Notes: generated by a model not told the origin, from the letters alone. Shown: positions 2,591 through 50,312, numbered from the stretch's first letter. The stretch: 64,000 nt of DNA from Burkholderiales bacterium (GCA_022841915.1 JALHQN010000016.1:17859-81858); one strand, 5' to 3'. Program-made: numbers and translations.

Positions 2591-2758
2591 CCGGCGCATC
2601 CGCAATCAGCCTGGACGCCGGGCGGCTTAAAGTCGCTGATGCCGTGGTCGTTACGTCAGTCTTGACGGCCTGTAATCGGTCCGTGCCGCGATCCGCAGGG
2701 AAATTCGGGGCGGTCCGTTCCCAGGTTCGACACCGCCACTCTAAGACTTGCCTTCATC

Positions 2759-3877
2759 GTGCTTATCCGATCCGATCCCAGCGCGGACGTCGACGCGCTC
2801 TCGCGCCTGCTGCAGGAAGTCGCGGCCGCTCCCGATGTCGGCCTGATCGTGGTGCTCGCCTGCGATGCCAATGGGTTCACGCCGGCCGTGCTCGATCCCC
2901 TCTTGCGCGCATGCGCGAAACCGCTGATCGGCGGCATCTTTCCGCAGATCATCGAGGGGGCCCGGGTGTACCAGCGAGGCACGATCGTGGCCGGGTTGCG
3001 CTGTCGCGCCACGGTGACGACGATCGATCGCCTGGAGCAGAGCGCACCCGACTTCGAAGCACGCATCGCCAGCAGGCTGAAGGAGTTCGAGCAGGGCCGC
3101 GGCACCTTGCTCGTATTCGCCGACGGCTGGTCAGCACGCATCTCCGCGCTGATCGACGCGCTCTTCAATACGTTCGGCCTGGACCTCGACTATCTGGGGG
3201 CTGGCGCCGGATCGCTCAGCCTGCGTCGATCCCCCTGCATCATGACCAATGACGGATTGCTCTCGGATGCCGCCGTACTGGCACTGACCGACATCGGTGC
3301 CGGCATCGGCGTCGGCCATGGCTGGATGCCCATCAGTCAGCCTTACAAGGTGACGCAAGCCGACCGCAACACCGTCATCAGCCTGGACTGGAAGCCCGCG
3401 TTCGATGTCTACCGCGAGATCGTCGAGGCGCACTCCGGTCGCAGCTTCGAGGGGGCCGAATTCTTCGACCTCGCCAAAGCCTACCCTTTCGGGATCGCCA
3501 AGCTCGATAACGAAATGATCGTTCGCGACCCCTTCATCCAGGACGGGTCGCGCATCGCTTGCGTGGGCGATGTACCGCGCGGCACCTACCTACACGTATT
3601 GCACGGCGACACCGATAGTCTGATTGTGGCGGCCGGGCGGGCAAGGGCCCTGGCGCAGTCTTCGTATCGCGGCGTGTCGGCGGAGCCATCGCTGCTGTTC
3701 ATCGACTGCGTATCGCGAGTGCTTTTCCTGCAGGACGAGTTCGCCCGCGAGATCGCAGCCGTCGATACGGGCTTGCCCCTGATCGGCGCACTGACGCTCG
3801 GCGAGATCGCCAACAGCGGCCGCGAATGCCTGGAGTTCTACAACAAGACCGCTGTGGTCGGGCTGCTGGATGCTTGA
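2759..3877 (+). CDS. FIST-domain sensory protein
   Basis: 372-aa ORF with a GTG start and high third-position GC. Length and sequence pattern are typical of FIST_N/FIST_C proteins (central GGIFPQII, C-terminal GALTLGEIA...FYNKT). It overlaps the downstream histidine kinase gene by 8 nt, suggesting translational coupling. Confidence 0.6.
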   Translation: MLIRSDPSADVDALSRLLQEVAAAPDVGLIVVLACDANGFTPAVLDPLLRACAKPLIGGIFPQIIEGARVYQRGTIVAGLRCRATVTTIDRLEQSAPDFEARIASRLKEFEQGRGTLLVFADGWSARISALIDALFNTFGLDLDYLGAGAGSLSLRRSPCIMTNDGLLSDAAVLALTDIGAGIGVGHGWMPISQPYKVTQADRNTVISLDWKPAFDVYREIVEAHSGRSFEGAEFFDLAKAYPFGIAKLDNEMIVRDPFIQDGSRIACVGDVPRGTYLHVLHGDTDSLIVAAGRARALAQSSYRGVSAEPSLLFIDCVSRVLFLQDEFAREIAAVDTGLPLIGALTLGEIANSGRECLEFYNKTAVVGLLDA

Positions 3878-6800
3878 AGCGTCGACATCCGCCGTGCCTT
3901 CGCGGGCCACCCTCGACCCCGTCATCCTGCTCGAGTTGGCGCTCGCGGTCGGCTCGAGTCTCGATCGAGACGCCATGCTGCGCGACGCCCTGCCGGTGTA
4001 CGCGCGCAAATTGGGCTGCACGATGGCCGCGGTGCTCGACGCCGACGACGGCTACCGGCAATCCGTGTCCAGCGTGCCGCGCAACCTCACGGGCAACGTC
4101 CGATGGCAGTTCGCACGGGCCGCCATCGCGGCGGCCTTCGCAACCGATCCGACGCTCTCGACGCATGCCGTCGAGGCGGGTCGGAACTGGTATTACGCCT
4201 TCAGGTTGGAGGACGCCGGCGTGCTCGTCCTGGGACGCGCCGTGCCGTTCGCGCCCTATGTCGTGCGGGAACTCGAGCCGGTCGTCGGACTCCTCGCTCG
4301 CGCCTGCCGGGCATGTAGCGACTACCAGGACAAGCAGGCGTCCGAGGCAAGACTGCGCGAGGCGCGCGAGCAGCTAGACTTCGCCATCCAGGGCTCGGGG
4401 GCCGGGCTTTGGGACTGGCGGGTGCAGACCGGCGTCGTGCAGGTCAACGAGTGCTGGGCGCAGATGATCGGCTATACCGTGGCCGAGCTTGCGCCCGTCG
4501 ATTTCCAGACCTGGAAGGACGCGCTCCATCCCGACGACGTTGCCGCGTCGCAGGCCGCATTGCAGGCCCACTTCCGCGGCGCGACCGAGCGTTTCGTGTT
4601 CGAGGGGCGCATGCGGCATCGGGATGGCCACTGGATCTGGATCCTGGCTCAGGGGCGCGTGGTCGAATGGGATGGCGACGACCCGGTCCGGCGCACGCCG
4701 CTGCGCATGGTCGGAACGCATACCGACATCACGAAGCACAAGACGCTCGAAAAGGCGCTCGAGCACGAGCGCAGCCTGCTCAAGACGCTGGTGCAGACGA
4801 TACCCGATCTCGTGTGGCTCAAGGATGCCCAGGGCGTCTATCTCGCGTGCAACCCGCAGTTCGAGCGACTCTACGGCGCCAGGGAAGCCGACATCGTCGG
4901 CAAGACCGACTACGACTTCGTCGCCCCGGCATTGGCCGACATGTTCCGGGCCAACGATCGCGCGGCGCACGCTGCCGGGCGCCCGCACACCAACGAAGAA
5001 GCCCTGACGTTCGCCGCGAACGGCTACCAGGGCCTGTTCCAGACCACCAAGACACCGATGTACGATGCCGAAGGCGGGCTGATCGGCGTACTCGGCATTG
5101 CGCGCGACATCACGGCAGTTCGGAGCGCCGACGAACATCGACGGCATCTGCTCGACATCTCGCGCGACGGCCTCATCGTGCTGGACAGCGACTACCGGGT
5201 GGTCGAAGCCAATCGGCGCATGGCCGACATGCTCGGCTACACCGTGGAGGAACTGATCGGCATGCACCCTTGGCAATGGGACGCCAACTGGACCGAGGCG
5301 GAGATACGCACGCGCTTTCCCGACCTCTCGACGACCAACGCGACTTTCGAGACGACCCACCGTCGCAAGGACGGCACATCGTATGCCGCGGAAATCAGCG
5401 CCACCGGCTGCATCGTCAACGGCACTGTTCGCGCACTGAATGTGGTCCGAGACATCAGCGAACGCGTGCGCTCGGCACTGGCGCTTCAGACCAGCGAAGC
5501 GCGCCTGAGCGCCTTGCTGCGCCAGGCAGCCGACGGCATCGTGCTGATCGATGTGGAAACACTGGGCTTCGCGGAGTTCAACGATGCCGCTTGTCGTGGC
5601 CTGGGCTACACGAGGGAAGAGTTCGCCTTGCTGGGCCTCGCGTCCATCAATCGCGACATGCCGCCCGCTGAATTTAGTACGGTGATCAAGTCGATCGTCG
5701 AGCGCGGCGGCCTGGATTTCGAAACCACGCACCGCTGCAAGGATGGAAGCCTGCGAGAGGTTCGCGTGACCAACCGGCCTGTCCATACCGCCGGTCGCAC
5801 CTACATCGTTGCCATCTGGACGGATATCACCGAGCGCAAGCACACTGAACGCGAACTCGAGCGACACCGGCTGCATCTGGAAGAAGAGGTGGCGGCGCGC
5901 ACCGAGGACCTCAGCGTGGCCAAGGAAGCCGCCGAAGCGGCAAGCCGGGCGAAGAGCACCTTTCTGGCGAACATGAGCCACGAACTGCGCACCCCGATGA
6001 ATGCGATCATGGGCATGACCGGGATCGCGCTGCGTCGGGCAACCGAGCCAAAACTCAAGGAGCAACTGACGAAAATCGGCAATGCTTCGAAGCATCTGCT
6101 GGGCGTGATCAACGACATCCTCGACCTGTCCAAGATCGAAGCGGAGCGCCTGACCCTCGAGTCCACCGAGTTCAATCTGAAGGCCCTGGTGCAAAGCCAC
6201 GTGGGCATGATCGGGCACAAGGCGGCGGAGAAAGGCCTCGATTTCGTCGTCGACGAACCTGCGGACAGCGAACGGATCTGGGTGCGCGGCGATCCCCTGC
6301 GTCTGGGCCAGATTCTGCTCAATCTGACCGGCAACGCGATCAAGTTCACACCGACCGGCGCGGTCACGCTGCGGGTCATCGTCGAGCACGAAAAATCCGA
6401 CCACACGAGCATCCGTTTCGAAGTCCGCGACACCGGCATCGGTATCGCACAGGCGGACCAACAGCGTTTGTTCACGGCATTCGAACAGGCCGATCCGTCG
6501 CTCACGCGCAAGTACGGCGGGACGGGTTTGGGACTGGCCATCACCAAGCGACTGGTGCAGGCAATGGGCGCAGAGATTCACGTCGAGAGCGAACCGGGCG
6601 CCGGCAGCCGGTTCTGGTTCACGCTTCGATTGCCGCGAGCGTTCGAACCGGCCGCCTCGCCGAGCTCCGAGCTGCGCGGGGCCTCGGCCGAGGCAATACT
6701 GCGATCGTACTTCGCCGGCACCCGAATACTCGTTGCCGAAGACGAGCCGGTGAATCAAGAAGTCGTGCGCGAATTATTGGAGGCTGCCGACCTGAACGTC

Positions 6801-7184
6801 GATGTCGCACAGGACGGCCAAGAGGCGCTCGACATGGCCATGCATACGCCATACGCCCTGATCCTGATGGACATGCAAATGCCGAAAATGAATGGCGTGG
6901 CGTCGGCGCGCGCGATTCGTCGGGCCTCACTGTGCCGGGGCACACCCATCGTCGCACTCACGGCAAACGCTTTCAACGAGGACCGGTCGGTGTGCATGGC
7001 CGCCGGCATGAACGATCATCTCGCCAAGCCCGTGGAGCCGGACCTGCTGTTCGAAACCGTGCTGAGATGGCTCACCAAGACGCGCTCCTCGGCGGACGGC
7101 AACGCAGCCCCGTCGGCCTGCCGAGACAGCGAAGCTTTGCGTTCCGGTACCGCCGCGGAACTGGAAGGGTTCGGCAACACCTGA
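3870..7184 (+). CDS. Hybrid sensor histidine kinase (N-terminal GAF-like region, about four PAS/PAC repeats, HisKA, HATPase_c, C-terminal receiver)
   Basis: H-box MSHELRTPMNAI and N/G boxes LLNLTGNAIKFT, DTGIGI and GGTGLGLAI are present. The receiver domain shows ILVAEDEPVNQ...LILMDMQMPKMNG...ALTANA. PAS signatures recur (e.g. GLWDW...WAQMIGY, RDITERK). Confidence 0.9.
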   Translation: MLEASTSAVPSRATLDPVILLELALAVGSSLDRDAMLRDALPVYARKLGCTMAAVLDADDGYRQSVSSVPRNLTGNVRWQFARAAIAAAFATDPTLSTHAVEAGRNWYYAFRLEDAGVLVLGRAVPFAPYVVRELEPVVGLLARACRACSDYQDKQASEARLREAREQLDFAIQGSGAGLWDWRVQTGVVQVNECWAQMIGYTVAELAPVDFQTWKDALHPDDVAASQAALQAHFRGATERFVFEGRMRHRDGHWIWILAQGRVVEWDGDDPVRRTPLRMVGTHTDITKHKTLEKALEHERSLLKTLVQTIPDLVWLKDAQGVYLACNPQFERLYGAREADIVGKTDYDFVAPALADMFRANDRAAHAAGRPHTNEEALTFAANGYQGLFQTTKTPMYDAEGGLIGVLGIARDITAVRSADEHRRHLLDISRDGLIVLDSDYRVVEANRRMADMLGYTVEELIGMHPWQWDANWTEAEIRTRFPDLSTTNATFETTHRRKDGTSYAAEISATGCIVNGTVRALNVVRDISERVRSALALQTSEARLSALLRQAADGIVLIDVETLGFAEFNDAACRGLGYTREEFALLGLASINRDMPPAEFSTVIKSIVERGGLDFETTHRCKDGSLREVRVTNRPVHTAGRTYIVAIWTDITERKHTERELERHRLHLEEEVAARTEDLSVAKEAAEAASRAKSTFLANMSHELRTPMNAIMGMTGIALRRATEPKLKEQLTKIGNASKHLLGVINDILDLSKIEAERLTLESTEFNLKALVQSHVGMIGHKAAEKGLDFVVDEPADSERIWVRGDPLRLGQILLNLTGNAIKFTPTGAVTLRVIVEHEKSDHTSIRFEVRDTGIGIAQADQQRLFTAFEQADPSLTRKYGGTGLGLAITKRLVQAMGAEIHVESEPGAGSRFWFTLRLPRAFEPAASPSSELRGASAEAILRSYFAGTRILVAEDEPVNQEVVRELLEAADLNVDVAQDGQEALDMAMHTPYALILMDMQMPKMNGVASARAIRRASLCRGTPIVALTANAFNEDRSVCMAAGMNDHLAKPVEPDLLFETVLRWLTKTRSSADGNAAPSACRDSEALRSGTAAELEGFGNT

Positions 7185-7236
7185 GGCTCTGAATCGCGGC
7201 CGAACCGAGGCATCCCGGGCCTGCGCGCGGCAAGCG

Positions 7237-8529
7237 TTACTCACTGATCGAGCGGGCGAGCCGGATCCCCGCAAATACATCGCTGCGATCGGGCGTATAG
7301 AAGTTGCGCCAGCGGTTATGCACCAGGCGCGAGCGCGTTGCGAACGATCCGCCGCGCAGGACGCGATGATCGCCGAACCAGGGCTGCGAGTACTCCTTGT
7401 AGGGTCCGGGCTGGAACCCCGGATAGGGAACAAACGGGCTCGAGGTCCATTCCCATACATTGCCCAACATCTGGCGCAGCCCGGTGCGGCTGTCGCCTCC
7501 CGGCAGGGCGGCACTGGGAACGGCGCCGTCCCATGCGCAGTCGAGGTTCGCCTGATCGGCCCGCGGCGAGATCGCCCCCCACGGATAGCGATCCGCGCCC
7601 GGATCCAGTTCGGCGCGCGCCGCGTACTCCCACTCCGCCTCGGTAGGCAGTCGAGCACCCGCGAATGCCGCGTAGGCGTCGGCCTCGTGCGCGCTCACGT
7701 GCATCATCGGTTCCGCATCGACCAGCGGCTCGATGCGGTCGAACCGCCGCAGCCGCCAGACCCCGCCATCCCGCTGCCAGTGACGCGGATGGTTCAAGCC
7801 GAGGCCTTGCCGCCATTGCCAGCCTTCGTCGGTCCACCAGCGCCGCTCGCCGTACCCGTTCGAATCGACGAAGCCACGGTACTGAAGTTGGGTGACGGTC
7901 GTGGTGGCCAATGCAAACGGCGCGATGTCGACCTCGTGCGCCTGCAACTCGTTATCGAAAACGAAGTCCGCACCCGGCATCGCCCCCATCGTGAAGCGAC
8001 CGCCGCCGAAACACACCTCGGACAGGCGGGGCGCCTCGACTGCGGCCATCTGCGACACCGATCGAGACGCCGGCCCCGGCAGCCCCAAGGTCTGCAGCGA
8101 CATGCGAAACGCCTCGGCATGCATGTCTTCATGATAGAGCGCGAGCATGGGAAAGTAGCTGTCCAGGACCGGCGCATGCTCGATGCGTCGAACCGTGGCC
8201 TCCAGCACGCGCTGCATGTAGTCGCGCACGATATCCCAGTCGAGCGCAGGCAGATCCCATCGCGCGGGATGAGCAATGAGCGCCGAGTTGAGCATGGGAT
8301 CGGCGTCGGTCAGCATCGACGCCTCGCGTAGCGCCCCGTCGCGCCAGCGCAGGCACCAGTGTTCCTGGAACCAGGCGACGTGGGCCAGTTCCCACAGCGG
8401 CGGATTCACCGTACGGCCGTATGGAAAGCGCATGGCCGCTTCATCCAGATGGGCATAGGCCGACAGCGTATAATCGCGGGCATCCTGCAACGCCTCGATC
8501 AACCGTTTACGATCGTTCAACGCTCTCAC
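7237..8529 (-). CDS. senA: EgtB-family sulfoxide/selenoxide synthase (DinB-like N-domain plus FGE-sulfatase C-domain); SenA-like by gene context
   Basis: The N-domain carries metal-ligand style motifs WELAHVAWFQEHW and LYHEDMHAEAF. The C-domain shows FGE-fold motifs LPTEAEWEYAAR, GNVWEWTSS, RVLRGGSF and GIRLAR. GTG start 8529 is preceded by a GGGGG SD; the listed 735-aa ORF extends upstream only as antisense of the neighbouring GT gene. The SenA versus EgtB assignment rests only on the adjacent SenB-like glycosyltransferase. Confidence 0.6.
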   Translation of the reverse strand: MRALNDRKRLIEALQDARDYTLSAYAHLDEAAMRFPYGRTVNPPLWELAHVAWFQEHWCLRWRDGALREASMLTDADPMLNSALIAHPARWDLPALDWDIVRDYMQRVLEATVRRIEHAPVLDSYFPMLALYHEDMHAEAFRMSLQTLGLPGPASRSVSQMAAVEAPRLSEVCFGGGRFTMGAMPGADFVFDNELQAHEVDIAPFALATTTVTQLQYRGFVDSNGYGERRWWTDEGWQWRQGLGLNHPRHWQRDGGVWRLRRFDRIEPLVDAEPMMHVSAHEADAYAAFAGARLPTEAEWEYAARAELDPGADRYPWGAISPRADQANLDCAWDGAVPSAALPGGDSRTGLRQMLGNVWEWTSSPFVPYPGFQPGPYKEYSQPWFGDHRVLRGGSFATRSRLVHNRWRNFYTPDRSDVFAGIRLARSISE

Positions 8530-9504
8530 TTGTCGCCCCCTGTCATCCTGATCGTCTCGCCGTACGCCGCGGCTGCCAACAACGGCAACACGCGCACGGC
8601 CGAGCGCTGGGCAAGACTGCTCAGCCCCGACTATCGCGCGATTGTACGCACGCCGCAGGATCCGCTCGGTGACGCCGATGTGCTCGTCGCATTGCACGCA
8701 CGCCGCAGCCACGCCGCGCTGCGCGCCTGGCGAGCGCGCGACCCGCAGCATCCGTGCATCCTGGTGCTCACAGGCACCGACTTGTATCGGGATATCCCCG
8801 AGCGCGACGCCAGCGCCCTCGAATCGCTGGCCCTCGCCGACGAACTGATCGTTCTGCAAGAGCGCGGCATCGAAGCCCTGCCTGCCGAACATCGCGGCAA
8901 GGCCACGGTGATCTACCAATCCGCCGCTGCCATGCCGTCTTGCGCAAAGTCGTCCCGGCGCCTGAACGCCTTGTTCGTGGGGCATCTGCGCGAGGAGAAG
9001 GATCCTCTTACTTTCATGCGCGCAGCCGCCGCCTTGTCCCCACGCAAAGACATCTCGTTCGCGCTCGCCGGCGGCCTGCGCGATGCCGCGATCGAGGCGA
9101 CCCTGGCGCCGCTGCGCGAGCAAGCACCCCAAGTGCGCCTGCTCGGCGCGCTGTCCCACGGCCGCACTCGGCAACGCATCCGGCGCGCCCATGTACTCGT
9201 CGTGCCCTCGCGCATGGAAGGCGGCGCCAATGTCATCGTCGAAGCCGTCATGTCCGGCACACCGGTGCTGGCGAGCGATTGCGACGGCAATGTCGGCATG
9301 CTGGGGGCCGGGTATCCGGGCTATTTCCCGGTAGGCGATGACGTCGCTCTTGCGCATCTGCTCGTCAGGTGCCGCGACGAACCGGCCTTCCTGCCGAGCT
9401 TGCAAACCCAATGTCGGGTGCGCGCACCGCTGTTCACCGCGCAAGCCGAACGGCAGGCTCTGGTCGCTGTGCTCGAACGCCGCCTCGCACCTCGGACCGG
9501 CTGA
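8530..9504 (+). CDS. senB: GT-B fold glycosyltransferase, SenB-like (selenosugar synthase-like); start uncertain (TTG 8530 or ATG 8449)
   Basis: The N-terminal strand-loop VILIVSPYAAAANNGNTRTAERWARLL and the C-terminal GT4-type motif PSRMEGGANVIVEAVMSGTPVLAS are present. It is paired head to head with the EgtB-family gene. From memory, this GT subfamily co-occurs with EgtB-like and SelD-like genes in the sen cluster. Confidence 0.55.
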   Translation: MSPPVILIVSPYAAAANNGNTRTAERWARLLSPDYRAIVRTPQDPLGDADVLVALHARRSHAALRAWRARDPQHPCILVLTGTDLYRDIPERDASALESLALADELIVLQERGIEALPAEHRGKATVIYQSAAAMPSCAKSSRRLNALFVGHLREEKDPLTFMRAAAALSPRKDISFALAGGLRDAAIEATLAPLREQAPQVRLLGALSHGRTRQRIRRAHVLVVPSRMEGGANVIVEAVMSGTPVLASDCDGNVGMLGAGYPGYFPVGDDVALAHLLVRCRDEPAFLPSLQTQCRVRAPLFTAQAERQALVAVLERRLAPRTG

Positions 9505-9513
9505 TCCACGAGT

Positions 9514-9942
9514 TCAATGTCGCGCGTTGCGCAGGATTTCCGCGCGGGCGTCCCTGACCTGCCTGGATGTCCAATGGCTGGCGATGAACGCGAGTACGGC
9601 GCGGATCTCCTCGTCGGTCAGCCGGTCGCCGAATCCCGGCATGTCGCTCTCGTAACCCGGCGGCGCATAGGGCGCCACCATGCCATGCTTGGTGATCGCG
9701 AACAGCAGTTCGTCCGCGTGGTGCCAGGTGTGCCCGCTTTCGTCATGAGGCGGCGCCGGCAGGCGACCGTTGGGCAAGCGCTCGCGCCAGTTCGGCTGCC
9801 CTTCCAGCTTGGCGCCATGACAAGCGGCACAGTGCTGCTCGTAGACGCGGGCGCCGGTGGCGATCTGCGCCGGGTCCGGCGTATCGGCGGTGCAGGCCGC
9901 GAGTACCCCGCAAAGTGCGATCAATAGCAAGCTTCGCGTCAT
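9514..9942 (-). CDS. Class I c-type cytochrome, probable lipoprotein
   Basis: ATG at 9942. The signal sequence carries a lipobox ([13 protein letters not shown]). The heme-binding motif is CAACH, with a distal Met region DMPGFG. The gene lies 7 nt downstream of the patatin gene stop. Confidence 0.8.
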
Positions 9943-9949
9943 GGACAAT

Positions 9950-10825
9950 CTATCCCGGAGTGCGCGCGAAGGCACGCGCCGTGCGCTCGCGGCCAAGCGC
10001 AATGAGTTCCTTGGCCCGCCAGAATTCGTGATATGCGCAAGCGTTGCGGGGCACCTCGATCGTGACGTCCGGAGAATAGGCCGCGAGCTTGAGACGAGCG
10101 ATCGTCGCCTGCATCGCCTCCATCGAGGCGAAGACGACCTCGCTCGTGCCCAGGGTAGGCGCAACCGGCGCCCCGCTGTTCGGAAACAGCCCCTCGATGA
10201 AGCGCCCGATGCGCCGTCGATAGTCGCTCCCCGCGTCTTCGGGTAGCACAGGCGGATCGACCAGCGCTTCGGCCCGCCCGTTGAGATCGACCGCGATGGT
10301 GAGATCCGTCGTATCGTTCAAAGTGGGCGCGATCGGAATCGGGTTGACCAAGGCGCCATCGAGCAGGCGGCGGCCGTTGTGCTGCGAGGGCGTGAACACC
10401 AGCGGCGTCGAAATCGAGGCCCGGATGGCGTCGAACAGCTTGCCTTCGCGCAACCAGACTTCCTTGCCGGTATCGAGATCGGTGGCGACGGCGGTATAGG
10501 CGATGGACAGATCCCGGATATCGCAGTCACCGATGAGATCGCGCAGCACGCCCATGATCCGATCACCCTTGATGAACCCGGTGCGGGCGAACGAGGGGTC
10601 GAGCAGGCGCAGGACATCCAAACGCTCGAGCGCGCTCACCCACTCGGTGTAGAGGTGCAGCTTGCCGGTCGCGTAGATGCCGCCGATGAGCGCGCCCATC
10701 GACGAGCCAGCAATGGAGCGCACAGCGTATCCATTCTCGCCGAGCCAATCGAGCACGCCGATATGCGCATAGCCCCGTGCGCCCCCGCTGCCGAGGACCA
10801 GCGACACCGTCGAGGGTCTGTCCAT
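9950..10825 (-). CDS. Patatin-like phospholipase (RssA-like)
   Basis: Oxyanion motif LGSGGARG, nucleophile elbow GSSMG and the catalytic Asp motif DGAL are present. The protein is 291 aa. Confidence 0.85.
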
Positions 10826-10969
10826 ACGCTTCCTGAAGAACGAAGAGCCGCCATGATACGCGCGCCCGCCCAGGTGCGAAGCCAGAGTGGCTGGGCCGGC
10901 GAGGGTGGCCGCCCCGGGGAAGACACCCGCCCGTTGCGACTTCTTCTTTGGGGAGCGGGGTTCAAGCTG

Positions 10970-11551
10970 CTACTGGCGCTCGGACCGATGCAGCGCGGGC
11001 GCGATCTCGGCGTCGCCCACACCCCGGGCGGTGTGTCGCAGGGCCTCCCGCCCGCTGTCGGCAGTGACCGCCAGCACGACGCGGATGTTTTCCCAACGGA
11101 CTTCCGGAGAACGCTCCGGGCGCACGCCGCCGGCTTTCTCCACCCCCACCCCGTGGCGGTACACGAGCTGCCCGCCAAGATAGGCCGTATAGTTCATCGC
11201 GACCACACCCGCGACCCCCGCCGCGAGATACCCCAGGCTGGGCGTCTGCGAGCGCGCTCGCATCAAGGCCAGGACGCCCGTCAAGGCGACCAGTCCGAGG
11301 TTCAGGTTTCGATGGGTCACCAAGGTCTCGTGGGCCTCTCGATCGACTTCGACCGCTCCCGGAGCGACCAACCCCGCCGTCGCCGCCACCGCGCCGCTGG
11401 CCGCAGCGATCGGCATCATCCGCGCACCCGCACGCATCCAACTTCGCTTGCCGGTGAGCCGGCCGATCAAGTCGAGCAACAGCGACGCCGGTATCAGGAC
11501 CAAAGGGAAATGGACGAGCGAAGGATGGATCTCATGAATGCGCAGGGTCAT
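10970..11551 (-). CDS. DUF2231-family integral membrane protein
   Basis: ATG 11551 follows a GGAGG SD. The N-terminal HPSLVHFPLVLIP motif and four predicted TM segments are present. Confidence 0.65.
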   Translation of the reverse strand: MTLRIHEIHPSLVHFPLVLIPASLLLDLIGRLTGKRSWMRAGARMMPIAAASGAVAATAGLVAPGAVEVDREAHETLVTHRNLNLGLVALTGVLALMRARSQTPSLGYLAAGVAGVVAMNYTAYLGGQLVYRHGVGVEKAGGVRPERSPEVRWENIRVVLAVTADSGREALRHTARGVGDAEIAPALHRSERQ

Positions 11552-11789
11552 GGCAGGCCTCCGGATCGAAGATGCGGAATCGCTCGCAAAACTCACACCC
11601 TCTTCGCTGCCGGGCTTTGCCTTCATCGCGTTTCCGGACCCGCGGCGCAGTGTCGGGCATGCGCGGCAAAGCCATCGGCACCGCGTTGCGGTGACCGATC
11701 CGGCGGCAGATATCGCCCGCGCGCAATGACAACGGAGCCCGAGTCGTAGACAATTGGCTTCTTGCCACGTGTGGATGGAGGGGAGCCAA

Positions 11790-12653
11790 ATGCGCTACGA
11801 GGCGCCAACGACAACAGAAGGGGCGGTCGCGCTGTTGGCGGCGGCCAACGGCACCGCGAAGGTACTTGCCGGCGGCACGGACCTGATCGTTCAGATGCGC
11901 AGCGGCCGGCTGGCACCGGATCTGGTCGTCGACCTGAAACGCATCCCGGCGCTGACCTCGATCGCGGCCGAGAACGGCGGTTACCGCGTCGGCGCCGCCA
12001 AAGCCTGCATGGAACTGGTGGAGCACGAAGCGTTCGTCAGGGACTGCCCCGGAATTACCGATGCAGTGAAGCTCATCGGCTCGATCCAGGTCAAAGGCCG
12101 CGCAAGCATGGGAGGCAATCTTTGCAACGCCTCGCCCGCCGCGGACAGCACGCCGGCACTGATCGCAGCTCGTGTCACCGCACGCGTCGTCGGCCCGAAC
12201 GGATCACGGGATGTGCCGGTGCAGGAAATCGCGATCGGCCCGGGCAAGACCTCGCTCGGCAAAGGGGAGATTCTCGAGTCCTTCCTGCTGCCCAAGCGCG
12301 CTGCGCGTTCCGGCGACGCCTACCTGCGGTTCACGCCGCGCACGGAGATGGACATCGCCGTCGTCAGCGCGGCGGTCAACCTGACGCTGGACGAGGGCGG
12401 CGTATGCCGCGACGCTTGCGTGAGCCTGGGCGCGGTCGCCGAGCGCGCGCTGGTGGTGCCCGAAGCCGCCGCCGCCTTGATCGGCACAAAAGTCGACGAG
12501 GTGGCCCTCAAGGCACTCGCGGCGGCGGCCAGCGCCGCATGCCGCCCGATCGACGACAAGCGCGGGACCAAAGCATATCGCACCAAGGTGGCCGGCGTGC
12601 TGGCGCGACGGGCCGCTGAAATCGCACTGAATCGGGCAAAGGGGACGAACTGA
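11790..12653 (+). CDS. Molybdenum hydroxylase FAD-binding (medium, CoxM-like) subunit
   Basis: ATG follows a GGAGGGGAG SD. The sequence VLAGGTDLIVQMR and the motif GGNLCNASPAADS are typical of xanthine dehydrogenase family FAD subunits. Confidence 0.85.
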   Translation: MRYEAPTTTEGAVALLAAANGTAKVLAGGTDLIVQMRSGRLAPDLVVDLKRIPALTSIAAENGGYRVGAAKACMELVEHEAFVRDCPGITDAVKLIGSIQVKGRASMGGNLCNASPAADSTPALIAARVTARVVGPNGSRDVPVQEIAIGPGKTSLGKGEILESFLLPKRAARSGDAYLRFTPRTEMDIAVVSAAVNLTLDEGGVCRDACVSLGAVAERALVVPEAAAALIGTKVDEVALKALAAAASAACRPIDDKRGTKAYRTKVAGVLARRAAEIALNRAKGTN

Positions 12654-13129
12654 TGGCCAAGCATCATGTGACGACGACGCTCAACGGCAGCCCCGTCGAG
12701 TATCTGTGCGAGCCGCATCACACGCTGCTCGATGTGTTGCGCGACGATCTGAACCTCACCGGCACCAAGGAAGGCTGCGGCTCGGGCGACTGCGGCGCCT
12801 GCAGCGTGATGCTGGACGGCCGCTTGGTCTGCGCCTGCCTCACCTTCGCCGCCGAATGCAACGGGCGCACCATCGAGACCATCGAAGGCATGGCGAACGG
12901 CACCAAGCTGCATCCCTTGCAGCAAAAGTTTCTGGAACACGCGGCGCTTCAATGCGGCATCTGCACGCCCGGCATGCTGATTTCGGCCAAGGCGCTGCTC
13001 GAGAAGAAGCCGGATCCGACAGAAGAAGAAGTGCGCTACTGGCTCGCGGGCAACCTTTGCCGCTGCACGGGCTACAACAAGATCGTGGAGGCGGTGCTCG
13101 ACGCCGCCGCCGAACTTCGGAGGGCATGA
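12653..13129 (+). CDS. Molybdenum hydroxylase (2Fe-2S) small (CoxS-like) subunit
   Basis: ATGA overlap with the upstream gene. The plant-type cluster GCGSGDCGACSV and the second cluster QCGICTPG...CRCTGY are present. Confidence 0.9.
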   Translation: MAKHHVTTTLNGSPVEYLCEPHHTLLDVLRDDLNLTGTKEGCGSGDCGACSVMLDGRLVCACLTFAAECNGRTIETIEGMANGTKLHPLQQKFLEHAALQCGICTPGMLISAKALLEKKPDPTEEEVRYWLAGNLCRCTGYNKIVEAVLDAAAELRRA

Positions 13130-13130
13130 C

Positions 13131-15407
13131 ATGGCAAACGACGTCAAGTTTCCAGAACGCGAACTGAAAGTCATCGGCACCAGCCCCGTTCGTCCGGACG
13201 GCGTCCCGAAGGTCACGGGCCGCGCCCAATACGGTGCGGACTGGACGCTTCCCGGCATGCTTTGGGCCAAGGTGCTGCGCTCGCCGCACGCGCACGCCCG
13301 CATCCGTTCGATCGACACCTCGGCAGCCGAGGCGTTGCCCGGGGTGAAGGCCGTGGTCACCGGCAAGGACTTCCCCGAACAGAAGTTCGACTACGTCGGC
13401 CCCGAGCGCGTGGCCATCAATTTCTGGCACTTCACGCGTAACGTCATGGCCAAGGAGAAGGCCCTCTTCGACGGCCATCCCGTGGCCGCTGTCGCCGCTG
13501 CAACCAAAGACATCGCCGACGAGGCGCTGAAGCTGATCAAGGTCGACTACGAAGTGTTGCCGCATGTCATCGATGTCGACGAGGCCATGCGGCCCGATGC
13601 GCCGCTGCTGTTCGAAGACATGAAGACGCGCGGTGTCACCCCCGAGCCGACCACGCCCTCGAACATCTCGAAGAAGATCGAGTTCAAGCTCGGCGACCTC
13701 GACGCCGGCTTCAAGATGGCCGACGAGATCGTCGAGATGAGCTACAAGACCAAGCCCGTGCACCAGGGCTACATCGAGCCGCAGTCCACCCTCGCCCGCT
13801 ACGATACCGACGGGCAGGCCGAAATGTGGTCTTCCAGTCAGGGCCACTTCGTCATGCGTACCTTCACGGCGAAGCTGCTCGGCATGCGTGTGGCCGATCT
13901 GCGCGTCCACGCCGCCGAGATCGGCGGCGGGTTCGGCGGCAAGACGATTTGCTACGTCGAACCGATTGCCGTGCTGCTGTCGAAGAAGGCGGGACACCCG
14001 GTCAAGCTCATGACCACCCGTGAGGAGGTCTTCCGTGCGACCGGGCCGACCTCGGGCGCCTCGATGACGATCAAGATCGGCGCCACGAAGGACGGAAAGA
14101 TCGTCGCCGCCCAAGGCATCTACAAATATCAGGCCGGCGCCTTCCCCGGCTCGCCTGTCATGAACGCCTGCATGTGCGGGTTCGCGCCCTACGACATACC
14201 GAACGCCCATGCGGTGGGCTACGACGTGGTGTGCAACCGCCCGAAAGCGGTCGCGTACCGCGCGCCCGGATCGCCCATCTCCGCCTTCGCGGTCGAGAGC
14301 ACGCTCGATGCGCTCGCCAGCAAGCTCGGCCTCGATCCGATCGATTTCCGCCTCAAGAACATCGCGCGGCCCGGCACCCAGATGCTCTCCGGCGGCAAGC
14401 TGGCCCATGCCGGCTTCGCCGAGACGCTGCAAGCCCTGCAGAAGCATCCCGCCTACAAGAGCAAGCTCGGCAAGAATCAGGGCCGGGGCGTCGCCTGCGG
14501 CTACTGGTTCAACGGCGGCGGCGAATCGAGCGCCACGGTGCACGTGAACGAGGATGGCACGGTGGTCGTTTCGACCGGCAGCCCGGACATCGGCGGCTCG
14601 CGCGCCTCCATGGCGCTCATGGCTGCCGAGACGCTGGGCATCGATTACGAAAGCGTGCGCCCCATCATCGCTGACACGAACTCGGTCGGCTATACCCAGG
14701 CGACGGGGGGCTCGCGCGTCACCTTCGCCACCGGCATGACCGTCATCAACGCCTGCAACAAGGTCGTCGACGAGCTGTGCGCCCGTGCCGCCAAGATCTG
14801 GAAGATCGACCGTGCCGACGTGATCTGGGAGAACGGTCATGCGCGCCCGGCCGGCGGCCGTGCCGGCGAATTCGAACCCATGTCGCTGAAGGCGATCGCC
14901 GCCAAACGCGCGGCCACGGGCGGGCCGATCACGGTGTCTGCATCGGTCAACGCCGAAGGCCAGGCGCCTGGCTTTTCCGCACAGTTCGCCGATGTCGAAG
15001 TCGACACGGACACCGGCCACGTCAAGATCCTGCGTTACGTCGCAGCCCAGGATGTCGGCCGGGCGATTCATCCGGCCTATGTCGAAGGCCAGATACACGG
15101 GGGCGTCGTCCAGGGCATCGGCTGGGCGCTGAACGAAGAGTACATCTACGACAAGAACGGCCACCTGGAGAACCCGGGATTTCTCGACTACCGCATCCCC
15201 GTGTGCTCGGATGTGCCCATGATCGAAGCCATCATCGTGGAAGTGCCCAACCCCGTGCACCCTTACGGCGTGAAGGGCGTGGCCGAGGCGAACATCGTCC
15301 CGCCCATGGCCGCCATCGCGAACGCCATCGACAAGGCCACAGGCACGCGCCTCACCGACCTGCCGATGTCTCCGCCCAAGGTGCTAGCCGCTCTCGACGC
15401 CGGTTGA
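13131..15407 (+). CDS. Molybdopterin-binding large (CoxL-like) subunit of a xanthine dehydrogenase/aldehyde oxidase family enzyme
   Basis: 758-aa protein with typical motifs (GGGFGGK, AYRAPGSP, GGSR, VHPYGVKGVAE). The active-site loop reads AVAYRAPG rather than the CODH signatures. Confidence 0.85.
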   Translation: MANDVKFPERELKVIGTSPVRPDGVPKVTGRAQYGADWTLPGMLWAKVLRSPHAHARIRSIDTSAAEALPGVKAVVTGKDFPEQKFDYVGPERVAINFWHFTRNVMAKEKALFDGHPVAAVAAATKDIADEALKLIKVDYEVLPHVIDVDEAMRPDAPLLFEDMKTRGVTPEPTTPSNISKKIEFKLGDLDAGFKMADEIVEMSYKTKPVHQGYIEPQSTLARYDTDGQAEMWSSSQGHFVMRTFTAKLLGMRVADLRVHAAEIGGGFGGKTICYVEPIAVLLSKKAGHPVKLMTTREEVFRATGPTSGASMTIKIGATKDGKIVAAQGIYKYQAGAFPGSPVMNACMCGFAPYDIPNAHAVGYDVVCNRPKAVAYRAPGSPISAFAVESTLDALASKLGLDPIDFRLKNIARPGTQMLSGGKLAHAGFAETLQALQKHPAYKSKLGKNQGRGVACGYWFNGGGESSATVHVNEDGTVVVSTGSPDIGGSRASMALMAAETLGIDYESVRPIIADTNSVGYTQATGGSRVTFATGMTVINACNKVVDELCARAAKIWKIDRADVIWENGHARPAGGRAGEFEPMSLKAIAAKRAATGGPITVSASVNAEGQAPGFSAQFADVEVDTDTGHVKILRYVAAQDVGRAIHPAYVEGQIHGGVVQGIGWALNEEYIYDKNGHLENPGFLDYRIPVCSDVPMIEAIIVEVPNPVHPYGVKGVAEANIVPPMAAIANAIDKATGTRLTDLPMSPPKVLAALDAG

Positions 15408-15451
15408 TTGCCACGGGGCGCTCGCGTCCCGTCACCGAGCAGCATCGCCCA

Positions 15452-15487
15452 CGCGGCGCCGTCCCCAGACGAGCGCCGCGTTTTTTC
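15452..15487 (+). terminator. Rho-independent terminator after the Mo-hydroxylase operon
   Basis: CGCGGCGC (15452-15459) pairs with GCGCCGCG (15473-15480) around a 13-nt loop. The stem is followed by TTTTTT (15481-15486). Confidence 0.7.
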
Positions 15488-15518
15488 TGGCCCAGGTCGA
15501 AGCGAGCGCTGCGAACGC

Positions 15519-15548
15519 TTGCTCGCCATACGTCCTGGGCCCTACAAT
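15519..15548 (+). promoter_or_regulatory. Sigma-70-like promoter and operator-like AT-rich inverted repeats upstream of the Xre/RES pair
   Basis: TTGCTC (15519-15524), an 18-nt spacer, then TACAAT (15543-15548). ACAAT (15545-15549) and ATTGT (15564-15568) are inverted repeats in an unusually AT-rich stretch just upstream of the antitoxin start. Confidence 0.4.
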
Positions 15549-15587
15549 TGCTACACCGTTTGTATTGTTTGATACGAGGAGTGCGGC

Positions 15588-15992
15588 TTGAGTGCAGTGT
15601 TCGAGCAGGTCGGCGCCATCGATCTCCATCAGCGCGACCAGCGAGGCAGGCTTGCCAGAATGGTCGTGAAGCTGTTCGATCACTGGCAGCTATCAGCGCC
15701 GGATCAGGCGACCTTGCTCGGCTTGTCGGCCGAGTCGCGCGCCACCGTCGCCCGTTACCGCAAGGGCGAGCCGCTTGCCGACAGCACGGACCTGCTGGCC
15801 CGCACGGGACATCTGCTCGGCATCCACAAGGCCCTGCGCATCATGTTTCCGCATGATCGCGATCTGGCCTATCGCTGGATTACGACCCCGAACCGTCGCT
15901 TCGGCGATCGCATGCCGTTGGAAATCATGCGTCAGGGCTACGAGGGGATCCTCGCCGTGCGCCGATTTCTCGATTTCGAGCGCGGCCGCTAG
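15588..15992 (+). CDS. Xre/MbcA/ParS-type antitoxin (DUF2384 toxin-binding domain)
   Basis: TTG start lies 6 nt after a GAGGAG SD. The C-terminal region (WITTPNRRFGDRMPLEIMRQGYEGILAVRRFLD) matches the DUF2384 antitoxin pattern. A RES-domain gene lies downstream. Confidence 0.7.
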   Translation: MSAVFEQVGAIDLHQRDQRGRLARMVVKLFDHWQLSAPDQATLLGLSAESRATVARYRKGEPLADSTDLLARTGHLLGIHKALRIMFPHDRDLAYRWITTPNRRFGDRMPLEIMRQGYEGILAVRRFLDFERGR

Positions 15993-16189
15993 CGCCCTGA
16001 GTCGGAAATTCGCTGAACAAAAGCGCCGGGAATCGACGCCATGCTTTGGCGGAAATCCTCGCCAAGCGTCCAACCTGGCTGCGTTTTCCTTCGCGTCCGA
16101 CGCCGATTTCGACCCTTTTGCCCCTTCCACACCGTCGGCACCGTTCGGCCATTCCTCAACGAATCTCTGACTCAGGACACTAGCGCGTC

Positions 16190-16897
16190 GTGTACGGCGA
16201 ACTGCTCACCACCATCGTCGACCACCACGACGACCTGGTCCGCAACATCAAGGGCATCCGCGTCTCGCAGGACCTGTACGACGATCTGTCGGACGAGATC
16301 GAAGACTGGAAAGTCGCAGTCGCTGCCGAATCCGCAGCCTGGATTCCGAGCCCTGCCCCGCTCGTCACGCGACCGTTCGACTACGGCGCCGTCATCACCT
16401 ACCCGTTCCTCAATCTGAATATCCAGGGCACGCGCTTCTCCGACGGGCTGGAATACGGCGTCTGGTACGGATCCCTCGACCTCGAGACGACGGTCTACGA
16501 GACTGTGCACCATTGGTCTGCGTTCGTCGCCGACAGCTTTCCCGACGAGGATCGGGAGATCGTGGCCGAACGGCGCATCCTGCGCACACGCTGCGATGCG
16601 ATCATGATCGACTTGCGCGGCAAGGAGCGCGTCGAGAAGCGCCTCGTGGACCGCAGCGACTACGGTTACGCTCAACAGCTGGGCCGCTACCTCAAGCGCC
16701 AGCATCAAAACGGGCTGCTCGTCCGATCGGCGCGCGGTCCAGGCACGAACGCCGCCGTGTTTCTCCCCGACGTGCTGTCCGACGTTCGGGATCTATGCTT
16801 CCTTACCTACCGCATGAACCCCACCCGGGACCAAGTGCGCGTCGAGCGCACGCCCGGGCGCAAATGGCTGGAGATCGCGCCCAGTCGGATGCGCTGA
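16190..16897 (+). CDS. RES-domain toxin (NAD+-targeting MbcT/ParT family)
   Basis: The R-E-S signature is spaced as expected: GTRFSDG, GSLDLETTVYE and LLVRSARGPGTNAAVF. GTG start, with an in-frame TAG three codons upstream (16181-16183). Confidence 0.7.
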   Translation: MYGELLTTIVDHHDDLVRNIKGIRVSQDLYDDLSDEIEDWKVAVAAESAAWIPSPAPLVTRPFDYGAVITYPFLNLNIQGTRFSDGLEYGVWYGSLDLETTVYETVHHWSAFVADSFPDEDREIVAERRILRTRCDAIMIDLRGKERVEKRLVDRSDYGYAQQLGRYLKRQHQNGLLVRSARGPGTNAAVFLPDVLSDVRDLCFLTYRMNPTRDQVRVERTPGRKWLEIAPSRMR

Positions 16898-23377: not shown

Positions 23378-24355
23378 ATGACACACATCGTCCGCAGCGT
23401 CGGGATTTTCGCCACGTGCGCGTTTTTGACGACGCCCACCGGGGCGGCCGAACAGCCCGCCTATCCGAACAAGCCGATCCGCCTCATCGTGCCCTTCCCG
23501 CCCGGGGGCAGCATCGATCCGATCGCCCGCATGATGGCGACGAAACTCAGCGAGCGTCTGGGTCAGCAGATCCTCGTCGATAACCGCCCCGGCGCCAACG
23601 GGGCCATCGGCACCGAGTTGCTCGCCCGGGCCGCTCCCGACGGCTACACGCTGATCCACCTCGGCCCCGGCACGCATGTCATCAATGCGCACCTTGCCAA
23701 GAATCTGCCCTACGACAGCATTAAGGATTTCGCCCCGGTCGCCGCCGTGCAGCGCAGCGACTACGTCCTCGTCGTGCATCCGTCCCTGCCGGTCAGCAGC
23801 GTGAAGGAGATGGCCGCTTTGGCCAGGGCCCGGCCCGGACAGATCGCGTATGGATCCTCGGGCAACGGCAACATGAACCACCTGGCCGCCGAACTGATGA
23901 ACATCACGCTCGGCATCAAGACCCACCACATCCCCTACAAGGGCGCAGCCGTGGTGTTGACCGATCTGATCAGCGGCCAGATCCAGATGCATTTTTCGGT
24001 GGCGATCTCCGCCCTGCCGCTGATCCAGGCGGGCCGCCTGAAGCCGCTCGCCTTCGGCGGCGAGACGCGCCTGGCGCAGCTGCCGCAGGTGCAAACCTTC
24101 GCCGAAGCTGGCCTGGGCGCCATCACCCTGCGTCCCTGGCAGGGAATGCTCGCACCGGCCAAGACGCCTCGTCCGATCATCGACCGGCTCAATGGCGAGA
24201 TCGCGCAGATCCTCAGACTGCCGGATATCGTCGAGTCGTTGAGCGCTCGCGCGATGACACCGCTCATCACCACGCCGGAGCAGTTCGCGGCACTGATGGC
24301 CTCCGACTACAAGAACGTCGCCGCCATCATCAAGGCAGCCAACCTCAAACTCTAA
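23378..24355 (+). CDS. Bug-family (TctC-like) tripartite tricarboxylate transporter substrate-binding protein
   Basis: A signal peptide is followed by the AYPNKPIRLIVPFPPGGSIDPIAR hallmark. The protein is about 325 aa. Confidence 0.9.
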   Translation: MTHIVRSVGIFATCAFLTTPTGAAEQPAYPNKPIRLIVPFPPGGSIDPIARMMATKLSERLGQQILVDNRPGANGAIGTELLARAAPDGYTLIHLGPGTHVINAHLAKNLPYDSIKDFAPVAAVQRSDYVLVVHPSLPVSSVKEMAALARARPGQIAYGSSGNGNMNHLAAELMNITLGIKTHHIPYKGAAVVLTDLISGQIQMHFSVAISALPLIQAGRLKPLAFGGETRLAQLPQVQTFAEAGLGAITLRPWQGMLAPAKTPRPIIDRLNGEIAQILRLPDIVESLSARAMTPLITTPEQFAALMASDYKNVAAIIKAANLKL

Positions 24356-28527: not shown

Positions 28528-29505
28528 CTAATTCTCGATCCGGATGTTCGCCGTCTTCACGATCTTGGCGATCTTGGCCGTATCGGCACGCAGAAAGGCC
28601 GTGAAGTCATCGGGCGTCGACGGAAAGGCCGTCACGCCCTGGCTCGCCAGCTTCGCGACGACGTCCGGCGATGCAAGCACCTTCCTGACTTCGGCAGAAA
28701 GTTTCTCCACGATGTCCTTCGGCGTACCGGCGGGGGCGAGGATGCCTTGCCAGCTGATGACGACCACACCGGGGAGACCGGCCTCGGCCATGGTCGGGAC
28801 ATCGGGCAGGACGGCGGAACGCACGTCGCCCGTGACCGCAATCGCCCGCAGACGCCCGCTCTTGATATGAGGCGTGGATGTGATGGGGGCCTGATAGGAC
28901 GCCTGCACCTGGCCGCCGATCAAGTCGCTCATCGCCTGGGCACCGCCCTTATAAGGAATGAGTTGCATCTTGATGCCCGCGACCATGCTGAACAACTCGG
29001 CTGCCAGACGCCCGCCGGAAGCCGCGCCGGAGATGGAATAGTCGACCTGCCCCGGCCTCGCCTTGGCCAGCGCGACGAACGCCTTCACGTCCTTTGCCGG
29101 CACCGAAGGGTGGATGAGCATGACATACATCTGGCTCGCCAGTCCGGAAACCGGCGCGAAATCCTTGATCGCGTCGTAGGGCGTGTTGGTGAGCAGCGGC
29201 AGCACGATGTGCGTGATCGACGGCACCAGCAGCGTGTAGCCGTCGGGGACAGCCTTGGCGACGTGCTCGGTACCGACGATGGTGTTGCCGCCCGGACGAT
29301 TGTCGACGATGGCCGACTGCCCCCAGGCGGTCGTGAAGTGCTGCGCCACCAGCCGGGCGATCATCGTGGTGCTGCCGCCTGCCACCGTCGGCACGACGAT
29401 GCGGATCATTCGGTTCGGATAAGCCTGCTGAGCGGCTGCGGTGCCCGTCATCGCCAAGACCGCGCCTACCGCTGCTGCGCGCATTGCGAAACCGATTCGA
29501 TTCAT
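28528..29505 (-). CDS. Bug-family (TctC-like) substrate-binding protein
   Basis: ATG 29505 follows a GGGAGA SD. A signal peptide is followed by AYPNRMIRIVVPTVAGGSTTMIAR. Confidence 0.9.
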   Translation of the reverse strand: MNRIGFAMRAAAVGAVLAMTGTAAAQQAYPNRMIRIVVPTVAGGSTTMIARLVAQHFTTAWGQSAIVDNRPGGNTIVGTEHVAKAVPDGYTLLVPSITHIVLPLLTNTPYDAIKDFAPVSGLASQMYVMLIHPSVPAKDVKAFVALAKARPGQVDYSISGAASGGRLAAELFSMVAGIKMQLIPYKGGAQAMSDLIGGQVQASYQAPITSTPHIKSGRLRAIAVTGDVRSAVLPDVPTMAEAGLPGVVVISWQGILAPAGTPKDIVEKLSAEVRKVLASPDVVAKLASQGVTAFPSTPDDFTAFLRADTAKIAKIVKTANIRIEN

Positions 29506-29644
29506 GACACGTCTCCCTGTTTGAGTTGCGAGCAAGCGCCGCAACGTTTCATCGATGCCTCACCACGCGGCCGGATCGCACTCGACGTCGCGGCGCTGGG
29601 CCAGCCGAGATCCTGTCCACCAGCGGCGCGCGCCCGTGGCGACC

Positions 29645-39296: not shown

Positions 39297-39369
39297 TGGA
39301 GGCGGGGGATGGATTTGAACCACCCTACGTGGCTTTGCAGGCCACGGCATAACACTCTGCCACCCCGCC
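39297..39369 (-). tRNA. tRNA-Cys (anticodon GCA)
   Basis: The minus strand reads GGCGGGGTGGCAGAGTGTTATGCCGTGGCCTGCAAAGCCACGTAGGGTGGTTCAAATCCATCCCCCGCCTCCA. It has a 7-bp acceptor stem GGCGGGG/CCCCGCC and an anticodon stem GTGGC/GCCAC with loop CTGCAAA. The T-loop TTCAAAT, discriminator U and encoded CCA are present. Length is 73 nt. Confidence 0.9.
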
Positions 39370-40116: not shown

Positions 40117-40593
40117 CTACTTGGCGAGCTGCCGCTCGCGAAACTGGATCATCTTGACCACATCCGCGGCATCCATCCGCCCGATCGGACCGTCGCTATA
40201 GCTCGATGCGAGCACCTTGCCGTCGCCACCGAGAACGAACTCGGCCGGTTGAACGATGCCGCGACGATCCTCCCACCAGGCGCCGATACGGTCTGCGATG
40301 TCGCGCGTGACGCCGTAACCGACGGGAAACGAAACCTCCGCGGCCACCTCGCGAGCCTTGTCCTCGGCATCAACGCTTGCCGCAAGGACTCGGACGTCCA
40401 GCGCATCCAAGGCTTGCTTGAGCTTCTCGAAGCCGACCAACTGTCGGCGGCAATACGCTCACCAGTGCCCGCGATAGAACAGAACGACACCATATTTGCC
40501 GCCGAGCTGCGACGGCACCCGAATACGCTGACCATCGACAATATCGATTTCCAGAGCCGGAAACGCTTCCCCGATACCGAGCTTGTCCGCCAT
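40117..40593 (-). CDS. Peroxiredoxin-like (AhpC/TSA/redoxin fold) protein with an in-frame UGA at the peroxidatic position; candidate selenoprotein (U-A-Y-C), alternatively a pseudogene
   Basis: ATG 40593 lies 6 nt after a GAGGAGG SD. The translation is MADKLGIGEAFPALEIDIVDGQRIRVPSQLGGKYGVVLFYRGHW-[TGA 40461-40459]-AYCRRQLVGFEKLK... and continues in frame to TAG at 40117. Cys homologues of this fold carry FYRGxWCPxC at the same place. Confidence 0.6.
40432..40448 (-). promoter_or_regulatory. Candidate bacterial SECIS hairpin for the peroxiredoxin-like gene
   Basis: The minus strand reads GCCGAC-AGUUG-GUCGGC, a perfect 6-bp stem that starts 11 nt after the UGA. The apical loop contains GU. 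Confidence 0.45.
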
Positions 40594-48717: not shown

Positions 48718-49123
48718 CGATCACTCCAAATAATCAAAAAGCAAAACTGCCGCAGCTGCTAAAAGCAAGGCTTGGACCATTAGGTGGACACTTCAGCTGC
48801 CCGCGGCAATGCCGTACGTGGAAGAGCAGGAAATTCGACACCTTCCCCCGAACACTCCTGCCGGCAAACGAGACGCAGGCGGCGAACGCCCCCCCCGCCC
48901 CCTACCGGTCGTCAGCTTTGGGTCGAGGATAGCGTCCAAAACGGCGCAGCGCCCGGCCGACAAGTACCTTTTCGGTGCATACGCGGGCCACTGCAACCTC
49001 GATGCGAAGCGGATCGTGCCGCAGACCACCTGGCATGATGCGTGCGTAGGCCGTGACGACGTCACATCCGGCGGTCGATCTCCTGACCATCGCCGGTGCG
49101 TGCCGCCAAGAGCCCCCAACGCA

Positions 49124-50140: not shown

Positions 50141-50312
50141 CCAAACCGCAGAGGCCGCATGCCGCCCGACGAACGGCGACCGGCAACCGCTGCGACAGAT
50201 CATGGCCGCGCCCCCAGAACAGACCACCCGGAACCCCAACGCCGCCAGGGCTCGCGCCTGCGGTGGCATCGATGCTCCGGACCGACCGAGCCCGTCAACC
50301 TTGCATCTGCCC

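Follow-up and report, generated by a model that had tools for sequence, protein, structure and literature searches.

The closest known counterpart of the locus described here is the sen cluster (senC-senB-senA) of Variovorax paradoxus strain DSM 30034 (Kayrouz and Seyedsayamdost 2022; 8k5i, 8ryz, 8fbx, 8jjq). Most sen clusters draw their hercynine from an unlinked egtD (10.1101/2022.04.13.486033). Two further systems are related: the ovoselenol (ovs) pathway (ovsA/ovsM with senB/senC), whose genes are in some strains chromosomally separated yet co-occurring (Kayrouz et al. 2024), and the ergothioneine sulfoxide synthase EgtB of type I (EgtB-I), here that of M. thermoresistibile (4x8b). Here, we analyze a senA-senB pair in a 64-kb stretch of Burkholderiales bacterium DNA (the window; all coordinates are counted from its first letter). 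The pair comprises a predicted senA, coding for a selenoneine (hercynyl-selenosugar selenoxide) synthase (7237..8529, minus strand; 430 amino acids, GTG start), and a predicted senB, coding for a selenosugar synthase, a GT-B Se-glycosyltransferase (8530..9504, plus strand; 324 amino acids, TTG start). It shares with the V. paradoxus cluster the same two C–Se bond-forming enzymes with the same active-site motifs, a senA divergent from senB, as in at least 60 Burkholderiales loci, and, presumably, the borrowing of hercynine from an unlinked egt pathway. It differs in having no senC after senB, in featuring a longer version of SenA, in a start-to-start gap of 0 nt, and in an EGGANV motif in place of EGGAHV in SenB. 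Judging from sequence and comparative evidence, we think it probable that this is a working two-gene module for the antioxidant selenoneine, which would be supplied in trans with selenophosphate from a housekeeping SelD and with hercynine from an unlinked egtD.

The sequence-only reading of the window had described the minus-strand gene as a complete DinB-plus-FGE enzyme of the EgtB family, and the Pfam domains DinB_2 and FGE-sulfatase were indeed recovered in it. A profile comparison of SenA against EgtB, which that reading had proposed as a check, came out in favor of SenA: the synthase scored 461.3 bits against the NCBIfam SenA hidden Markov model (HMM) NF041186 (cut-off 420) and 321.7 bits against the EgtB model TIGR03440, below the cut-off of 360. 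One might still argue for an EgtB of ergothioneine synthesis, or an OvsA of ovoselenol synthesis, with a glycosyltransferase as a chance neighbor. The pairwise scores of the synthase against the solved structures are about equal (253 bits each for M. thermoresistibile EgtB and OvsA, 249 bits for V. paradoxus SenA), and some of its relatives have been deposited under the name 'EgtB'. Further, the window clade, EgtB-I and OvsA have in common a segment of roughly 50 amino acids (residues 306-355) that is missing from the V. paradoxus-type SenA; we term the versions with this segment long-form SenA. With scores of 249-253 bits each, the pairwise PDB search was dropped as a discriminator between SenA, OvsA and EgtB-I. 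Because these scores tie, we used the curated HMMs along with the published composite active-site motif (10.1101/2024.04.10.588772, Methods) as the criterion for class, with the residues being read from a MAFFT alignment.

The SenA class motif, xNEH--HRHxHYYN(F/Y)(F/Y)R, takes in the three iron-binding His, the catalytic Tyr, the N/E/H/R of the selenosugar pocket and the Y/N/F residues that bind hercynine; OvsA features xNEH--HRHxHYMQAYR, with M/Q/A binding histidine, and EgtB-I the γ-Glu-Cys-binding xSDH--RRHQHYYNWDR (10.1101/2024.04.10.588772). The window synthase reads NEHHRHMHYYNFYR (NEH-HR-HMH-YY-NFY-R), compared to NEHHRHMHYYNFFR in V. paradoxus SenA, SDHRRHQHYYNWDR in M. thermoresistibile EgtB and NEHHRHMHYMQAYR in OvsA. 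The residues concerned are N42, E47, H50, H87, R90, H133, M136, H137, Y377, Y380, N409, F410, Y411 and R415. By alignment, H50/H133/H137 form the iron triad, Y377 is the catalytic tyrosine, Y380/N409/F410 contact hercynine, and N42/E47/R90 line the selenosugar pocket. At two positions the replacement is specific to SenA: Arg87 has become His, and Asp416 has given way to an aromatic residue, here Y411. This exact motif is present in 115 of 121 aligned sequences (the window SenA and its 120 closest metagenomic homologues) and in all the SenB-adjacent homologues of at least 60 reference loci; the best SenA match in the protein collection stands at 89%.

These residues bear directly on the EgtB and OvsA alternatives. 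As in EgtB-I, the window enzyme has the DinB and FGE fold, the three-His iron site, the catalytic Tyr377, the hercynine Asn and a similar overall length. However, the γ-Glu-Cys residues S43, D48, R87, W415 and D416 of M. thermoresistibile EgtB are replaced by N42, E47, H87, F410 and Y411, and the partner gene is senB, its start abutting that of the synthase gene at 8529/8530, rather than egtA, egtC, egtD or egtE. The ovs pathway likewise uses a SenB-made selenosugar and a SenA-related NHISS enzyme, but OvsA binds free histidine via M/Q/A and needs OvsM; the window enzyme has Y/N/F at these positions, and Pfam scans of 40 further window open reading frames (ORFs) found no OvsM-type or other relevant methyltransferase. 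In a neighbor-joining tree of 28 sequences (200 bootstraps), SenA and OvsA together split from EgtB-I in 185/200 replicates. The long-form SenA group was recovered in 139/200, and the tree gives no firm placement of it relative to OvsA. Thus, on HMM, motif and context, the window synthase fits the SenA class and not EgtB-I or OvsA, and a chance neighbor of either of the latter kinds is very unlikely.

The assignment of the plus-strand gene is equally consistent. It had been likened to SenB on account of its N-terminus and size, and the resemblance holds at the family level: the protein, which matches the Glycos_transf_1 domain, scores 382.4 bits against TIGR04348 'selenosugar synthase SenB' (cut-off 300), with the next GT4 family at 93 bits. 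Four SenB crystal sequences (including PDB 8jjq and 8fbx) match it from residue 1 at E~1e-80, and it shares 52% identity with V. paradoxus SenB. Mutagenesis and structures have singled out important SenB residues (PMC10891094, PMC10702425), which include the catalytic, Se–P-cleaving K158, the selenophosphate pocket N20, H58, R61, T83, T85 and R155, and N20, T23 and E231 for sugar selectivity (PMC10891094). Invariant in the window SenB are N17, G19, N20, R22, T23, H56, R59, T81, T83, D84, R154, K157, E230 and E238 (in V. paradoxus numbering, H56 is H58, R59 is R61, T81/T83 are T83/T85, R154 is R155, K157 is K158 and E230 is E231). Hence, the catalytic Lys and the selenophosphate-pocket and sugar-selectivity residues are all conserved.

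The two genes are arranged head-to-head without an intervening base: at the junction (8527..8532) the senA GTG (8529-8527, minus strand) abuts the senB TTG (8530-8532, plus strand), and therefore the promoter and the ribosome-binding site of each must sit within the other gene. More than 100 homologues begin at a Met or Val ('M/V-R-E-L') that lines up with the senA GTG, and the SenB N-terminus MSPPVILIVSPY pairs with MSNPSLVIVSPA of the crystallized V. paradoxus SenB, starting at residue 1. A mechanically called minus-strand ORF of 735 amino acids (7237-9444) is over-extended relative to the true senA (7237-8529) because the antisense of senB stays open in the senA frame. ORF finders stretch SenA to 735-759 codons (open antisense at 7237-9513, minus strand), and a public homologue of 564 amino acids (P0004) carries the same artefactual N-terminal extension. 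The zero gap recurs in L002 (10000/10001) and L090 (6000/6001), with values of -2 nt in L005 and 4 nt in L010. A comparison of GC content at third codon positions gave no hint of foreign DNA (senA 0.79, senB 0.78, neighbors 0.81-0.83).

What sets the window locus apart is the absence of senC, and the earlier observation that no SelD-like gene lies within the 64 kb stands. A tblastn search of the window with E. coli SelD returned a best E-value of 0.96, and Pfam and NCBIfam scans of 46 further window ORFs found neither SelD nor EgtD; the Pfam scans of 40 further ORFs also gave no AIR-synthase-type domain. Accordingly, the three-gene arrangement, with a selD-type senC adjoining or overlapping senB, is not found here. 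We then surveyed SenB in one genome per GTDB species, which yielded at least 586 loci, and analyzed the best 80 of these. In 66 of the 80, senC lies directly downstream of senB, with a gap of about 15-460 nt. In five (L070, L073, L078, L080 and L082) a diverged SelD, 33-34% identical to that of E. coli, is found 1.3-5.7 kb away, downstream but non-adjacent; the typical senC is about 50% identical to E. coli SelD. In the remaining nine (about 11%), no SelD was found within 5-10 kb. The sequence-only reading thus overrated how unusual the locus is: divergent senA and senB genes are seen in nearly all 80 loci (with starts only -2 to about 140 nt apart), making the head-to-head layout the family norm from which only the absence of senC deviates, and the senC-less organization, while less common, is recurrent and not rare.

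The converse layout, senB-senC without senA within 10 kb, was found in about 10 loci; those lacking a senA-like gene within 10 kb upstream include L007, L009, L013, L036, L042, L049, L063 and L064. Such loci may be selenosugar-only modules or suppliers of an unlinked NHISS enzyme, and the selenoneine pathway is modular. In L028 (2984-4243) and L047 (2715-3962) a same-strand NHISS gene follows senB-senC, its motif SHHRRHQHVYNFFA being EgtB-II-like and not SenA-like; both contigs are short upstream, and a divergent senA could be cut off.

The phyletic pattern of senC is sharply defined. It is missing from all seven loci whose SenB is at least 64% identical to that of the window, which are the window itself, L001, L002, L003, L088, L089 and L090, and three of these seven have differing flanking genes. 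L001 is syntenic with the window locus, and L090 (LNFM01001339.1) is syntenic with window positions 2628-15745 at 89-95% DNA identity. In L002, a Burkholderiales metagenome-assembled genome, the pair has nuo genes on one side and an FAD oxidoreductase gene on the other, and in L003 it is placed between lipase and BatA genes. A search for a conserved alternative partner gene across the senC-less loci found none. The next relatives, L005 and L010, possess senC, and their SenB and SenA are 54-57% and 53-57% identical, respectively, to those of the window. Among the tree members, the senC-less SenA (represented by the window, L002 and L003 only) were monophyletic in 200/200 bootstraps and sister to the senC-bearing L005 and L010 in 199/200. 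This nesting of a monophyletic senC-less group among senC-bearing relatives points to a single loss or unlinking of senC at the base of the clade.

A gene pair stranded by the loss of senC from a three-gene cluster could be an inactive, decaying remnant, for which the missing senC and the lack of a recognizable promoter might speak, along with the fragmented gene calls seen in the relative L001. However, the ratio of nonsynonymous to synonymous substitution rates (dN/dS) against L090 is 0.21 for senA and 0.17 for senB. Both genes have thus been under purifying selection since the loss or unlinking of senC, which argues against decay. Moreover, neither ORF is disrupted and no catalytic residue is missing, and the pair has been kept, in at least three genomic contexts, by a clade whose members have drifted as far apart as 64% identity. 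The fragmentation in L001 affects its cox genes too and, therefore, looks like assembly noise. We accordingly regard a decaying remnant as improbable.

Two candidate selenoprotein genes had been proposed in the window and both could be located. The first, outside the sen locus, is a UGSC-family gene on the plus strand (62844->63998, running off the window end) with an in-frame TGA at 63147-63149. UGSC is a recognized selenoprotein family (PMC13188914), and the gene matches the UGSC model NF041046 at 40.8 bits (E=2e-10), below the cut-off of that model. The motif around the TGA, ISGNAG-U-GSCTAASSRAS, has its TGA in the same alignment column, GN(A/G)G-U-G(S/A)CT, in L085, L086 and L087 (62-75% identical), with both flanks strongly conserved. 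RNA folding for a selenocysteine insertion sequence (SECIS) after this TGA was no better than in shuffled sequences (z = +1.56), and the call therefore rests on the comparative conservation of the TGA. Past the N-terminal UGSC domain, the reading frame runs on through a long C-terminal stretch that has no Pfam domain. Gene callers split the gene of L085, L086 and L087 at the selenocysteine codon into two same-frame ORFs, and the homologues called from just past the TGA are about 450 amino acids long; public gene calls thus seem to mis-annotate the fusion protein systematically.

The second candidate is a thioredoxin-fold, Prx/AhpC-like gene (40117-40593, minus strand) with a TGA at 40461-40459 in the context HW-U-AYC (UxxC). 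It has weak peroxiredoxin/ResA/SelL-related matches only, and a GCCGAC/GUCGGC hairpin begins about 14 nt after its UGA. We take the UGSC gene as strong sequence evidence for the use of selenocysteine and the Prx-like candidate as weaker evidence. Selenocysteine decoding needs selD. A selenoprotein gene with an in-frame TGA therefore implies selenocysteine decoding in this organism and, with it, the presence of a selD elsewhere in its genome; the latter we infer from the selenoprotein gene and have not seen directly. SelD-made selenophosphate is the common donor for every selenium trait (PMC11448449).

Of the two explanations offered at the outset by the sequence-only reading, the supply of selenophosphate in trans is the one favored by this need of the UGSC gene for selD, while the synthesis of a sulfur analogue is disfavored by published enzymology. 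In this second view, a pair deprived of senC produces an analogue based on sulfur or something else, e.g., a thiosugar-derived, ergothioneine-like product. It can appeal to the lack of a SelD near the pair, and to the weak use of thiophosphate by SenB (PMC10702425) and of thioglucose by SenA (10.1101/2022.04.13.486033). But SenB discriminates 10- to 20-fold against thiophosphate (PMC10702425), and with SenA, thioglucose is a very poor substrate from which a sulfoxide accumulates, with no elimination and no thione being formed (10.1101/2022.04.13.486033). The window active-site residues are the same as those in the selenium-specific enzymes, and the conserved UGSC TGA indicates an organism that clearly uses selenium. 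Hence, we give the analogue hypothesis hardly any credence.

In the pathway that we propose instead, in which the pair is a working selenoneine module, SenB would join selenophosphate to a UDP-sugar, most likely UDP-GlcNAc, to yield a 1-seleno-sugar, with Lys157 (K158 in V. paradoxus) predicted to cleave the Se–P bond. SenA, as a non-haem-iron enzyme with the His50/His133/His137 triad and the catalytic Tyr377, would then couple the selenosugar oxidatively to C2 of hercynine, and the resulting selenoxide would eliminate spontaneously to give selenoneine. The lineage would have lost or unlinked its dedicated selenophosphate synthetase, SenC, with selenophosphate coming from a selD elsewhere, presumably the same one that serves selenocysteine insertion, and hercynine from an unlinked egtD. 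A housekeeping selD feeding SenB would have made senC redundant, which provides a simple rationale for its loss.

Several observations weigh against this proposal. Identity between the long-form SenA and the characterized V. paradoxus enzyme is only about 35-40%, and the tied pairwise scores against EgtB and OvsA noted above point the same way. In SenB, the 'EGGAHV' motif is EGGANV in the window and L002, with the functional Glu retained and the His changed to Asn. A promoter and terminator scan of 7000-10100 found no sigma-70 consensus and no promoter-like site for senA or senB, and was otherwise uninformative. Finally, none of selD, selA, selB, tRNA-Sec and egtD was seen within the window.

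A more speculative extension, to which we would assign only a small likelihood, is that the long-form clade abandoned its own selenophosphate synthetase and made selenoneine synthesis depend on the housekeeping SelD that supports the selenocysteine trait or, with less likelihood, that it turned to another chalcogen or sugar donor. The clade could also represent an evolutionary intermediate with an altered substrate scope because the long-form SenA retains the EgtB-I/OvsA-like 50-residue segment.

Taken as a working selenoneine module, the locus represents an ordinary variation on a known pathway, and it reveals no new chemistry. Its novelty is limited to the unlinking of senC throughout a clade, to the long form of SenA and to divergent start codons that fully abut, and the current NCBI models would already give senA and senB their correct names. 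It nevertheless illustrates that, where a genome already puts selenium to use in selenoproteins, a C–Se bond-forming gene pair can last for long evolutionary periods with no dedicated senC. In practical terms, senC-less loci will escape genome mining that, like the original discovery, starts from cassettes next to selD.

The immediate neighbors of the pair are those given by the sequence-only reading. A PAS-rich hybrid histidine kinase gene (3870-7184, plus strand) flanks senA, and a cytochrome c gene (9514-9903, minus strand), convergent with senB, begins 9 nt past it and is followed by a patatin-like lipase gene. Further along are coxM/S/L-like genes for molybdenum hydroxylases of the xanthine dehydrogenase family (11754-15407, plus strand), whose synteny with the sen pair extends to L001 and L090, and just downstream of these is a toxin–antitoxin pair with an Xre-like antitoxin and a RES-domain toxin (15588-16897, plus strand). 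The window also codes for five periplasmic receptors of the TctC/Bug family (23378-24355, 28528-29544, 47719-48717, 48809-50140 and 50202-51293), a number typical of Burkholderiales. These receptor genes, along with pnp, rdgC and a tRNA-Cys gene (39297-39369), indicate a chromosomal origin for the window.

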